64,000 nt of DNA, from the NCBI GenBank assembly GCA_030141605.1, contig JAQGDQ010001041.1, positions 1 through 64,000 on the forward strand, given 5' to 3'. Positions 363-11,751 of the stretch are shown in pieces. The notes under the pieces are model-generated. The model was not told the origin of the DNA, did not search any database, and saw only the letters and a program-made list of their open reading frames with translations. The position numbers and the translations under genes were made by a program. The stretch's first letter is position 1, and each line of letters opens with the position of its first letter. The stretch is from Tubiluchus corallicola (Eukaryota; Animalia; Priapulida).

Positions 363-1065
363 AGTAGGATAGATGTTACACCTCTGGCCGATTTCCCGGG
401 GGGGGTGGGGATTTCCCCGGGGGGGTGGGGAAAAACACCCCTAAAAAAGTGCGAAAATCCGGGAAAACCCCTAAAAAAGTGTGAAAACCCGTGTGAAAGT
501 GCGCACGTGACCGAAATCGACGAAAAAGCGCGAAAAACAAAGAAAAACGAAGAAAAGGCGTGTGAAACGAGGTAAAAATTTTCCATTTTTTCCCTCCCGC
601 ATGGCTTCATTTGGATCGAATGACCTTGAACTCTAGGTCACGTGACCAAAGTTCATTGACCCCTGGCCCCTGGATGGCTTCTTTTTTTGACGCCCCATTT
701 TAAACCGCGCGAAAGTGCGTGAAAGCGCGTGAAAGCGCATGAAAGCGTGTGAAAGTGTGTGAAAGTGTGTGAAACGAGGTAAAAAGCGCCTCAAACGAAG
801 AAAAAGGGAGAAGTGGAGTTCCCGCCGAGGACTAATTAGTGCTAATTGGCGCTAATTGGCGCTAATTGGGGAGCCCCTGCCACCCCTCCGCCGCGTGCAA
901 ACGTCCGTCCCGGGGGTCGGGGACACCCCCCCTGCAACCCACCCCTCCGTCGCGTGGAATCGTCCACTGCAGGCAATGAGGGAAATCTTTTTCCCGCCAC
1001 TCGCGCAGTGCCGGCCCTTTTCCGCGACCACTTCTCTCTCTCGGGTGTCCTCCCTTTTCCGCGAC
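363..1065 (+). repeat. Left terminal inverted repeat (703 bp)
   Basis: Reverse complement of 2722-3450 up to TTCCGCGAC. Mirrored ORFs (359..610 - and 3203..3577 +) have identical translations over the shared part. Confidence 0.95.
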
Positions 1066-1120
1066 CACTTCTCTCGCGGGTTTAGATGTGTGTGTGTGTG
1101 TGTGTGTGTGCGTGTGGAGA

Positions 1121-1174
1121 TTTATTTCAAACGCCAAAGTTCGATAAATGCATTTTCACAAATCTTTTTTTATT
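1121..1174 (-). terminator. Candidate polyadenylation signals of the element cassette
   Basis: AATAAA on the minus strand at 1174-1169 and 1126-1121, in an AT-rich stretch downstream of the TBP-like stop and just before the left TIR. Confidence 0.5.
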
Positions 1175-1322
1175 GATGGATTACAAAAAATTTTTTTTAC
1201 ATTTTTTATGCAAAATACATACGTGCTAAAACTAGATTATTATTATTATTATGGTGACATGATAGTTCTACATTTTACGTTTTTTTCGCAAATTACACAA
1301 ATTACGCAAAATTACAGTAAAA

Positions 1323-1907
1323 CTACACTAATGACGACGAGCGAGTACATGGATTGTCGTCGTCGATGTGATACAGACAAACGTTATTGTTGTTAAAAAC
1401 GAATTCGTTAAATTTGCGGAAAACGCGAGAGAAATCCTCGACCTTTGTCCCGCCCATCATTATTATGCTTCCGGTGTGAAAAATGTTCAGAGTAATTTGC
1501 TCGCATTTGCAAGTTAGTTTGGGAAATAGTTCCACTTCGTAAAACACTTCTCTAAAAGAATGCGTCGAAGGACGAACGAGTTCTTCGTACAGTGCACCCA
1601 GTTTCAATCTGCAGCGAATTTTGGCTCTGGCGGTGATGGTGCGAATTGCGATCCCGTCGGCGGGCGTCAGTCCGAGACCTTTCGAGAGTTCTTCGATCGC
1701 ATTGCGTAGTACTTTTTCCTCCGAAAAACCGTTGGCCACCACGGAGCCGGAGGCAAAAATCATCAGCGTCCCGCCCAGTCGCTTTAGCAGAACCATTTGC
1801 GGTTTCCTTTCGTAGCGTCTTCCGCCTGTTCTCCGCCAGAGTTCGTTCAGATCGAAGCGCTGCGAGAACGAAGCAGTGGCGACGATGTTGACCGTTTGGA
1901 CTGACAC
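1323..1907 (-). CDS. Divergent TATA-binding-protein (TBP)-fold protein, about 194 aa; no ATG before the domain (GTG at 1907)
   Basis: Two TBP repeats: VNIVATASFSQRFDL...TLMIFASGSVVANG and FYEVELFPKL...TLNIFHTGSIIMMGGTK (compare TBP LIFSSGKMVCTG and YEPELFPGL). Length equals a bare TBP core. Confidence 0.85.
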   Translation of the reverse strand: MSVQTVNIVATASFSQRFDLNELWRRTGGRRYERKPQMVLLKRLGGTLMIFASGSVVANGFSEEKVLRNAIEELSKGLGLTPADGIAIRTITARAKIRCRLKLGALYEELVRPSTHSFREVFYEVELFPKLTCKCEQITLNIFHTGSIIMMGGTKVEDFSRVFRKFNEFVFNNNNVCLYHIDDDNPCTRSSSLV

Positions 1908-2359
1908 GTTAGTACGTAGTTGGCAATCGTTTCGGACGCCCGAACCGCTCTGCCTCGTCCGTTGCTCTGCCAACGTATGGCGGGCGGCGGGTGCTCGCTT
2001 TCCAGATCTTCTACGCGTATGACCACGCGATTTTTGGGGAGATGTTTTTTGACGAAATCGTACATCTCTGCCCCCTTGACGTAGGTGATCCTGCCTCTGG
2101 TGGTCTGTCGTAGAATGTTTTCCAATTCTGCGTACTCGATCATTCCCTCCTCCCACGAGATGCCGTGTATGTGTCTGATTAGGTAGTTGTAGGTGGATCG
2201 CTTGTGCTGGGGAACGCGATTCCAGGGGTGGGGCGGTTTGAAGGTGTAGTTGTGATATATGCCGGTCTCTATTTCGCGAATTACCAAATTTTTGACCAGG
2301 TATTCTTCTTTTCCGCACTGGAAGGCATCTATGGTGAGAACTATGCTCGATTCAGACAT
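1847..2359 (-). CDS. 170-aa protein, probable DnaQ/DEDD-like exonuclease fold (possibly degenerate)
   Basis: ATG start and globular composition. Motifs IDAFQ..EYLVKNLVI, FKPPHPW, IHGISWEEG, YVKGAE and EDLE recall DnaQ-like proteins of invertebrate Polinton-like elements and DNA viruses (from memory). The ExoI DxE motif is incomplete. Confidence 0.6.
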   Translation of the reverse strand: MSESSIVLTIDAFQCGKEEYLVKNLVIREIETGIYHNYTFKPPHPWNRVPQHKRSTYNYLIRHIHGISWEEGMIEYAELENILRQTTRGRITYVKGAEMYDFVKKHLPKNRVVIRVEDLESEHPPPAIRWQSNGRGRAVRASETIANYVLTCQSKRSTSSPLLRSRSASI

Positions 2360-2702
2360 CTGTGACGATGGGGGGTCCTTCTACGCCGTCGGCAACGAGT
2401 TTTCCTTCGATGACGATTTGCTTGTGATTGTTCACAAATTCCAGAGACTTGATTTTTTCGAAGGTGTATTTTTTTATGACCTTGTTGGGGGCACTCTTGC
2501 GTGCGTTGGCGCGCTTGCCGCCCCGCGTCCCCGCTTGTTGTTGCTTGCGAGGAACGGTGGTTAGAGGTTGTTTGAAATCCTGCAAGAGAAGAAGAAGAAC
2601 AATAGTTATAGTATTGTTGTTCGCTAACGACAACTAGGCATTTTTGATGAGCCATTCTTTCAGATTTCTAGGTTTTTTGGGGGCAGTGGGGGTGAGCACC
2701 AT
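2352..2702 (-). CDS. Small basic protein with a histone H3-tail-like segment; in-frame TAG at 2636-2634 (short intron or nonsense mutation)
   Basis: Strong Kozak GCCGCCG-ATG-G at 2702 gives MVLTPTAPKKPRNLKEWLIKNA*. The same frame continues to DFKQPLTTVPRKQQQAGTRGGKRANARKSAPNKVIKK...TDV*. A pyrimidine tract plus CAG acceptor ends at 2580. Confidence 0.6.
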
Positions 2703-2721
2703 CGGCGGCGATGGAGGGGGC

Positions 2722-3450
2722 GTCGCGGAAAAGGGAGGACACCCGAGAGAGAGAGAAGTGGTCGCGGAAAAGGGCCGGCACTGCGCGAGTGGCGGGAAAA
2801 AGATTTCCCTCATTGCCTGCAGTGGACGATTCCACGCGACGGAGGGGTGGGTTGCAGGGGGGGGGGGTGTCCCCGACCCCCGGGACGGACGTTTGCATGC
2901 GGCGGAGGGGTGGCAGGGGCTCCCCAATTAGCGCCAATTAGCGCCAATTAGCACTAATTAGTCCTCGGCGGGAACTCCACTTCTCCCTTTTTCTTCGTTT
3001 GAGGCGCTTTTTACCTCGTTTCACACACTTTCACACACTTTCACACGCTTTCATGCGCTTTCACACGCTTTCACGCGCTTTCATACACTTTCGCGCGGTT
3101 TCGCGCGGTTTAAAATGGGGCGTCAAAAAAAGAAGCCATCCAGGGGCCAGGGGTCAATGAACTTTGGTCACGTGACCTAGAGTTCAAGGTCATTCGATCC
3201 AAATGAAGCCGTGCGGGAGGGAAAAAATGGAAAATTTTTACCTCGTTTCACACGCCTTTTCTTCGTTTTTCTTTGTTTTTCGCGCTTTTTCGTCGATTTC
3301 GGTCACGTGCGCACTTTCACACGGGTTTTCACACTTTTTTAGGGGTTTTCCCGGATTTTCGCACTTTTTTAGGGGTGTTTTTCCCCACCCCCCCGGGGAA
3401 ATCCCCACCCCCCCCGGGAAATCGGCCAGAGGTGTAACATCTATCCTACT
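2722..3450 (-). repeat. Right terminal inverted repeat (729 bp)
   Basis: Differs from the left TIR by two extra 10-bp GAAA units, a longer G-run, one extra CT unit and a few substitutions. Confidence 0.95.
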
Positions 3451-3510
3451 CACAGTTTCTGTACGTAGTAATGTTTGTACTTATTTACAAGTGAGGCTAA
3501 TATACAGTAA

Positions 3511-3925
3511 GGGCATGGTCAGACTAGTGAGTTTTCTGTCGCGAGATTTCTTTCTGACAGCAAACTTGCAAGTGTAAACTGCTTTGCGAGTTACTGTAAA
3601 AAATTGCAAACTCGGCACCGGTTGACGTGAGTTGATTCACTGTCTAGTGTGAAAGCTTCAGGGAGTTACTCTCAACACTTGTGTGACAATGAACAGTGAA
3701 GTGAGTGTCAGCTTGCACTTACTGTCAGAGAGTAACTCGCAGCAAGTTTTGCCCTCTAGTCTGAACATGTTTGTGAGTTACTGTCTAGTGTGAAAGCCTC
3801 AAGGAGTTACTCTCAACACTTGTGTGACAATAAACAGTGAAGTGAGTGTCAGCTCGCACTTACTGTCACAGAGTAACTTGCAGCAAGTTTTGCTCTCTAG
3901 TCTGAATGCACTTGCGAGTTACTTG
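3511..3925. mobile_element. MITE-like repeat with an internal 141-bp duplication
   Basis: Inverted ends CATGGTCAGACTAG / CTAGTCTGAACATG (3756-3769). CTGTCTAGTGTGAAAGC recurs at 3640 and 3781. Related sequence lies at 18186-19102 (reverse) and about 31535-31620. Confidence 0.65.
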
Positions 3926-4574
3926 CGAATGCACCAGTTTAAAGTTAAAGTAAAAGTTTGGTAATTATGATTTCATTTGATAATTTTCACGTAATTAAGC
4001 GTCACTGAAAAGTTCAACTGTATTTCTCAAAGGAGTCTTTATGTTTTTATGAATATTTTAGCTAAACACATGCCAGATTTTATAAAATAAGTTTTAAAGA
4101 CCATCTAAAACATCACAAGATATCACATAATTTTATTAACACACAACTTATTTTCTCATGTAAACTTACTTTCAGTAATTTCAGTGTAATTTCAATAACA
4201 CAAACTGCTACGTATACCTTCGCGTACGGCTATGAACACAAAAACAACGTTAAAAGCCAAAGTTCAGATATCATTAAGCAATGCCGTCAGATACGCAAAT
4301 TCTATTTGCTTAAATCACAGCTAAAATAACAGAAATAAAATATGCCTAATCCCGCATAATAGTACAAACCCAAAGTAAATCCTTAAACCAACTGTAGATA
4401 AAACAGGGTCATATAAAAGACATGTAAGGAGTTAACATTAAAGATTTCTGTGAGTGTTTTGCTGTTATATGGAAGTTAGCACTGTCTATTTGATGTAGAG
4501 TTGTTCAGAGAATGTTCTCTTGTATTTTCTATGTACATTAGGCTTTGTCCCAAACAAGTAACAAGTTTCACGAC

Positions 4575-11574: not shown

Positions 11575-11751
11575 CTAACTAGCTGTGAGAATTTTGTACA
11601 AGTCTTCATCGCCTAGGCACCCCTTGGTAAATTCTTCCTCGGTTAACTTGCCGTCGCTGTTTTCGTCCATCCGATCAAAAATCATTTTTGCTCGCGCTTC
11701 TGGGGTATCCTGCTGTTGAGTGACCTCTGCTCCGAGCATGTCGTAGATGGC
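11575..11751 (-). CDS. ncs-2: Neuronal calcium sensor 2-like, last coding exon (EF-hand 4)
   Basis: Acceptor TTTTAG|GCC. Encodes AIYDMLGAEVTQQQDTPEARAKMIFDRMDENSDGKLTEEEFTKGCLGDEDLYKILTAS*. 177 nt, phase 0. Confidence 0.93.
   Translation of the reverse strand, partial: AIYDMLGAEVTQQQDTPEARAKMIFDRMDENSDGKLTEEEFTKGCLGDEDLYKILTAS

Follow-up and report, generated by a model that had tools for sequence, protein, structure and literature searches.

The window analyzed here, a 64,000-nucleotide stretch of a contig from the priapulid Tubiluchus corallicola (JAQGDQ010001041.1, positions 1 to 64,000), contains near its left end an inverted-repeat element of 3,088 bp (363–3450) that carries three genes, all on the minus strand. 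From right to left these are a small gene whose product includes a stretch resembling the tail of histone H3 (the motif gene; exon at 2352–2579), a gene for a protein with a DEDD/DnaQ fold (1847–2359), and a gene for a TBP-like protein (1323–1922). The genes lie between a left terminal inverted repeat of 703 bp (363–1065), which begins with AGTAGG and is identical to the right repeat at 699 of 703 aligned bases, and a right terminal inverted repeat of 729 bp (2722–3450) that is located upstream of the minus-strand genes. The ends of the element are AGTAGG ... CCTACT; Polintons have the ends 5′-AG ... CT-3′.

The right repeat contains four E2F-like sites, where 0.32 are expected (none of 2,000 shuffles reaches four; two of the four are tandem copies), together with three CCAAT boxes, 10 bp apart, and two CACGTG boxes. 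The repeat lacks a TATA box, even though a TBP is among the products of the element. From its sequence we infer a promoter role for the right repeat; by box content, both inverted repeats (2722–3450 and 363–1065) resemble the promoter of a cell-cycle or histone gene. An AATAAA at 1169–1174 (minus strand), downstream of the TBP gene, is a candidate polyadenylation signal that the genes may share; a second AATAAA ends at 1126. No 6-bp target-site duplication is seen at the element, whose two flanks are unlike each other; on the left, a duplication may have been overwritten by the (CTA)n run that forms that flank. Directly to the right of the element (3490–3930) lies another high-copy repeat family that is internally duplicated and has many loose ends. 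The window is otherwise rich in microsatellites and in A and T, and at 11575–11751 (minus strand) it includes the last exon of an EF-hand calcium-sensor gene (Pfam EF-hand), presumably neurocalcin-like; this exon and the base composition of the surroundings suggest an animal host for the element.

No second copy of the element is present within the 64-kb window. In four sequencing runs, which represent no more than two samples, the contigs over the element have summed depths from hundreds to tens of thousands, values that do not equal copy number, and diverged contigs of the element, in which approximately 10–20% of the letters are different, occur at much lower depth than the main ones. In all four runs the contigs have loose ends at 2731, that is, in some copies other sequence lies upstream of the first gene. 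The high depth, the diverged contigs and the loose ends together indicate that the element probably exists in many copies, with older subfamilies and longer forms. This other sequence, which terminates in a stop codon of the minus strand, hints at longer elements that hold additional genes.

The DEDD/DnaQ-fold protein (170 aa) was characterized by its homologues, a structure model, Foldseek and an alignment. A profile search collects 653 relatives at E ≤ 0.001, the best match being 62% identical; the structure model is confident (pLDDT 92), and its Foldseek matches to DnaQ domains (E-values from 1e-4 to 8e-4) identify an RNase H-like DnaQ fold. In the search against viral folds, the best named match is a protein of Drosophila-associated adintovirus 2 (E = 5.5e-11), followed by ichnovirus proteins; we write ‘best named’ because the top entry has no name. 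The first acidic motif is incomplete, with one acidic residue where relatives have D-x-E/Q (a pattern found in 90 of the 152 collected proteins, two of them not members of the family), so the protein is likely to be inactive as a nuclease. No common Pfam family was found for 72 DEDD-family sequences. When viral contigs were searched, the gene gave one relative with no loci listed, and none of 70 matches to the family alignment was related.

The TBP-like protein consists of the core only and is identified by Pfam (PF00352, E = 9e-22; two TBP repeat stretches, 77 bits vs a curated cut-off of 22.9), by TBP in the PDB (E = 3e-9) and by an atlas score of 0.96. At the four positions that we take to be those of the DNA-intercalating phenylalanines, it has F at three, the first not being F. 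Upstream of the first homologous strand the frame offers no ATG; the one relative, which is 59% identical, is likewise called from this internal Met, and a conserved, spliced arrangement may thus account for the absent start. A TACTAAC...CAG near 1912–1899 is a possible acceptor for the TBP gene; alternatively, the protein could be fused with the product of the overlapping DEDD gene. A search of viral contigs with the TBP gene gave no relative, and the TBP alignment gave two short, unrelated matches there. The best match of the DEDD protein and the relative of the TBP-like protein are each encoded by a contig of 1,855 bases, perhaps one and the same. Eleven differences between copies are listed in 1793–2072 (the list holds 40 of the 111 differences): five of six in the DEDD-only part and one of three in the TBP-only part are synonymous, and the two in the DEDD/TBP overlap are each synonymous in one frame.

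Polintons are characterized by a protein-primed PolB and a DDE integrase (PMC6431247), and their insertion produces a 6-bp target-site duplication (PMC3014272). The studied element resembles the Polintons and adintoviruses in its long terminal inverted repeats and in its DEDD-fold gene, which among named viral matches is nearest to an adintovirus protein, an affinity that is by fold; it resembles the MELD viruses, for which a figure legend of PMC8502044 gives TBP-like and SET genes, in having a TBP-like gene. However, Polintons measure 15–25 kb vs 3.1 kb for the element, in which no frame for PolB or a DDE integrase occurs (363–3450) and no packaging ATPase, protease or capsid gene is found; likewise, none of the 25 frames of at least 110 aa in 6000–64000 is PolB- or integrase-like as judged by eye. 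Because the element departs from Polintons in its lack of polymerase, integrase, ATPase, protease and capsid genes, in its size and in the 6-bp duplication, we rejected an autonomous Polinton. Since polymerase, integrase and capsid genes are absent, and since the long repeats, the AG ends and the affinities of the genes point in the same direction, the element is best read as a likely non-autonomous Polinton/Maverick (adintovirus-like) derivative.

The motif exon (2352–2579, minus strand; 75 codons and a stop) was delimited with a codon model, a single-sequence structure model and inspection of the sequence; its stop codon overlaps the ATG of the DEDD gene. According to a codon-position model trained on the two neighboring genes, whose frames are fixed by homology, the frame that encodes ARKSAP beats the other minus-strand frames by 49 bits and does so in both halves of the exon; this margin is comparable to that of cross-validated controls and is reached by none of 5,000 shuffles. 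With this margin, the ARKSAP frame is the true coding frame, at least by origin. The protein begins with a basic segment (11 K and R vs one acidic residue in the first 38), for which the structure model gives coil, and continues after residue 38 with a two-strand hairpin (mean pLDDT 69, pTM 0.31, low confidence). The initial annotation had described a peptide with no histone fold, and this holds: neither the 93-aa frame nor a 30-mer has a match to H3 in the PDB, and there is none in Pfam. A fold search with the model returned none of 48,161 chains at Z of 2 or more, a result that is uninformative because the query is a lone hairpin. A likeness of the hairpin to TFIIA-gamma or PC4 was considered; searches of Pfam and of PDB sequences do not bear it out, and they also gave no match of the motif protein to a known core protein. 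The exon encodes no signal peptide. The protein ends in T-D-V (2352–2366, minus strand), presumably a class I PDZ-binding pattern; this end is constrained by the overlap with the next ATG and is likely due to chance.

The open stretch of the motif frame contains no in-frame ATG. A candidate first exon or leader lies upstream at 2634–2702 (minus strand), a 22-codon frame that is in the same frame as the motif, starts with an ATG at 2702 in strong Kozak context and ends with a TAG at 2636–2634; its codon pattern puts it approximately 10 bits ahead of both alternative minus-strand frames but only 1.5 bits ahead of the best opposite-strand frame. Within this frame (2637–2702, minus strand), TPTAPKKPR has what we take to be the pattern of a nuclear import signal beside a CDK site. 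The stretch between, 2580–2636 (minus strand), has 35% GC vs 47–51% in the flanking coding parts and a pyrimidine tract with a CAG acceptor that ends at 2580; the low-GC gap and the acceptor suggest that an intron probably precedes the motif exon. The only GT ahead of the TAG directly follows the ATG at 2702 and is a weak donor, and three GTs at 2634–2628 would fit an ATG at 2655. In one minority contig of run X1, part of the sequence ahead of the motif exon is missing; the ends of this gap are not GT-AG, so we do not count it as evidence of splicing.

The H3-tail-like stretch occupies 2469–2552 (minus strand) and was defined by translation and by word and diagonal comparison with H3: in the minus-strand translation with scripted coordinates, PRKQ starts from 2552, ARKSAP lies at 2504–2487 and VIKK extends to 2469. 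The peptide and the positions given in the initial annotation agree with this translation, and the H3 tail to which it was compared is that of the H3 chains in the PDB and the commonest natural tail, which is shared identically by 62 of the 74 natural H3 loci that we fetched (as contaminants of microbial assemblies) for reference. Those loci come from 74 stretches of prokaryote-labelled genomes (L012–L085) with canonical eukaryotic H3 genes, many of them in tandem approximately 4.6 kb apart, and are likely host contamination of the assemblies.

ARKSAP is an exact match to a word with a modification site, H3 residues 25–30. The three words occur in the order in which H3 has them, as had been claimed; their spacing does not follow H3. 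ARKSAP and the second K of VIKK fall on one ungapped H3 diagonal (K27 and K36; nine identities with H3 1–44), and PRKQ is seven residues off this diagonal. The run of Q between PRKQ and ARKSAP has one additional residue in one third to all of the contig depth, depending on the run. With marginal alignments (see below), PRKQ off the diagonal and a variable Q-run, the hexamer ARKSAP is, as judged from sequence, the solid core of the resemblance, and the support from its flanks is weaker. The stretch also includes an RGG word. In the six frames of the 64-kb window ARKSAP occurs once and ARKS three times. ARKS is common to the H3K9 and H3K27 sites; the residues that precede it here differ from those at both. 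In the studied copy, a KQ and a GGK (2507–2546, minus strand) are spaced like K4-Q5 and G12-G13-K14 of H3, with a G at the K9 position; this register is lost in copies with the extra Q.

Whether the resemblance exceeds chance depends on the test used. When the 75-aa exon is shuffled 200,000 times, colinear exact H3 words with a total length of 10 arise in three cases, and the same number of shuffles of the basic 28-mer gives eight; in simulation, such chains occur zero times per 24 million six-frame residues, zero times in 20 million residues with the composition of the collected proteins, and four times in 20 million residues with the composition of the motif exon itself. Of the 2,065 segments in the six frames of the window, that with the chain PRKQ plus ARKSAP ranks first (the runner-up scores 5), and it scores higher than all 152 collected proteins; this chain statistic is post hoc, that is, it was picked once the match was known. 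An exact H3 hexamer of any kind occurs in 109 of 200,000 shuffles of the motif exon, at a rate of 6.5 per million residues with the composition of that exon (131 in 20 million), and at 0.5–1.8 per million six-frame residues of simulated DNA. The last rate equals approximately 0.06–0.23 per 64-kb window, so a large scan would return many lone hexamers by chance. In BLOSUM62 local alignments to H3 1–44 with four gap settings, 357–624 of 10,000 shuffles of the exon (p 0.04–0.06) and 171–1,800 of 10,000 shuffles of the 28-mer (p 0.02–0.18) score at least as high as the real sequence, and p values against two viral H3-like tails are similarly marginal; by alignment score, then, the resemblance appears marginal.

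Homologues of the motif gene were not found by a word-index search among proteins of 40–130 aa, and its best score in the atlas (0.80) is below the threshold for a lead. In metagenomes, the matches listed comprise one locus from 595 stretches, which is not a homologue; it falls within a gene for a small GTPase, and we rejected it as due to chance. A degenerate ARKSAP...[VI]KK pattern has five matches in viral contigs, none of them with ARKS. Two giant-virus contigs that share one MAG label (L009:2059–3210, minus strand, and L011 at approximately 1501) encode long proteins in which near-complete H3 tails are fused to non-histone sequence, and these copies of the tail are far stronger than the motif studied here.

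The copies of the element that we see over the motif are near-identical ones. The main X1 contig has no other letters and one in-frame 3-base insertion over 2181–2595, and a diverged contig has 18 other letters and 10 gaps over 2397–2584; among the 40 of 111 differences listed, none is a substitution in the motif exon. X2 and X4 lack one base of the T run at 2469, a loss that is absent in X1 and in X3 of the same sample; because it is inconsistent between runs of one sample, we take it to be a likely homopolymer error.

Viral mimics of the H3 tail that have been described include SARS-CoV-2 ORF8 (ARKSAP), influenza H3N2 NS1 (ARSK) and adenovirus protein VII (AKKRS) (PMC10208167, PMC13165374, PMC10833455), and motifs of this kind have been surveyed across the virome (PMC11738798). 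Like these mimics, the motif protein is of viral type, lacks a histone fold and carries a short word that matches H3 exactly; it differs in that the word lies in a predicted disordered basic tail, is encoded by an endogenous element, is accompanied by two further H3-like words and is known from sequence alone. The initial annotation had cited ARKS of ORF8 as a precedent, and the entire hexamer ARKSAP is identical; however, the precedent is disputed, with mimicry by ORF8 claimed in PMC13165374 and PMC10208167 and the hexamer reported not to act as a mimic in PMC10833455. PMC8502044 describes accessory proteins with short host-mimicking motifs (Oncoid) in the adintovirus group. No H3-tail mimic of a Polinton is described in the literature that we searched, which covers few subscription journals.

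Mobile elements may also act against host silencing by other means: VANC of the Arabidopsis VANDAL elements is described as a sequence-specific anti-silencing protein (PMC5735166). The motif protein would be like VANC in that a mobile element encodes a factor against silencing, here a putative one; it would differ in mode of action, that is, histone-tail mimicry rather than sequence specificity. Host proteins also have ARK(S/T) sites, e.g., the automethylation site of G9a, an enzyme whose preference is given as ARK followed by a hydrophilic and then a hydrophobic residue (PMC8541646, section 3.1). The motif has the same arrangement; it is encoded by a mobile element rather than by the host, and its modification is putative.

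The reading that we prefer, tentatively and with somewhat less than even confidence, is that the motif gene is a real coding gene on a non-autonomous Polinton derivative and that ARKSAP is a functional mimic of the H3K9/K27 type in a predicted disordered nuclear tail; for histone mimicry by the motif protein as such, we regard the odds as about even. A serious alternative, which we also place below an even chance, is that the gene is real and that ARKSAP is a coincidence of composition within an ordinary tail, rich in K and R, that binds DNA or RNA or directs nuclear import (e.g., the tail of a small protein of the core type from the parent virus). The 11 K and R in 38 residues with an RGG word in the same stretch, the marginal p values of the alignments, the 6.5 H3 hexamers per million residues at the composition of the exon, the PRKQ that is out of register and the dispute over the ORF8 precedent (PMC10833455) all agree with an ordinary basic tail; however, two ordered exact words are rare at fixed composition (8 of 200,000 shuffles of the 28-mer), and no known core protein matches in Pfam or PDB sequence searches. 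These two readings are not fully exclusive, since a basic core protein may itself be a mimic, adenovirus protein VII being the precedent (PMC10208167).

The motif gene could also be a relic that was coding in a longer parent, with the amplified 3-kb copies unable to make the protein and spreading solely via their inverted ends. We consider this quite unlikely, even though the motif frame has no in-frame ATG, a TAG upstream of the exon at 2636–2634 and no strong donor, the TBP frame likewise has no start before its first strand, the acidic motif of the DEDD protein is incomplete, and the loose ends at 2731 (four of four runs), with other sequence upstream, are consistent with a longer parent; against these stand the textbook acceptor and the low-GC gap that suggest an intron, three frames that are otherwise open, a 59% identical TBP relative called from the same internal Met, and five of six listed DEDD-only differences that are synonymous (40 of 111 differences listed; two of three TBP-only differences, however, are non-synonymous). 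Finally, an overlapping 104-codon frame with an Arg-rich end opens at the ATG at 2655, in good context and without splicing, and were it the true gene, ARKSAP would lie in a shadow frame; this very improbable reading is largely refuted because the frame scores approximately 49 bits worse than the ARKSAP frame over 2355–2579, because GC is distributed over its codon positions as in a shifted frame, and because a shifted frame of the DEDD gene looks equally rich in R, H and Q.

On our preferred reading, that of a functional mimic, the motif protein may act as bait for the host enzymes that silence genes. From the observed sequence, the coding frame, the anatomy of the element and the folds of the two neighbors, we infer its splicing, expression, nuclear location, modification and effect on silencing as follows. 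The inverted repeat would drive one transcription unit (as the E2F-like and CCAAT boxes and the single downstream AATAAA region suggest), and splicing would provide the motif gene with its start. Once made, the small basic protein would move into the nucleus, where the lysine of ARKS would be methylated or acetylated by the host's writers of H3 marks, those of the G9a/GLP type being the best fit. The modified ARKS would then tie up or recruit chromodomain-type readers, and the mimic would thereby help the element's own TBP to keep the element's genes transcribed.

The initial annotation had proposed a decoy that counters silencing of the element, with PRC2 as a target. The general idea gains from the true coding frame, the predicted disordered basic segment and the location in a virus-like mobile element beside a TBP gene, a setting in which a chromatin-directed mimic would be expected; the PRC2-specific version is not borne out, as nothing singles out PRC2, ARKS being common to K9 and K27 and the preceding residues matching neither. 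As judged by the preference given for G9a (PMC8541646), the A-R-K-S-A site would fit that enzyme at least as well as PRC2. A bolder extension, which we think unlikely, is a mini-Polinton that has been stripped of its replication and capsid genes and keeps, under selection, a three-gene cassette for host control behind an inverted-repeat promoter of the cell-cycle type: one gene for an H3-tail decoy, one for a DEDD protein that is dead as a nuclease, and one for a TBP of its own. The decoy would blunt silencing through H3K9/K27, and the element would owe its high copy number to this effect.

Histone-tail mimicry has been described for a handful of infectious viruses, and in this element a motif of a known type occurs in a new setting. 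Should the motif be due to chance, the element would still be unusual, as it is short, retains a TBP and two other accessory genes and lacks every mobility gene. With a 75-residue candidate decoy on a 3-kb element, the resistance of animal DNA transposons to chromatin silencing would become directly testable; if the bolder reading is correct, this would be an animal DNA transposon that counters silencing through histone mimicry.
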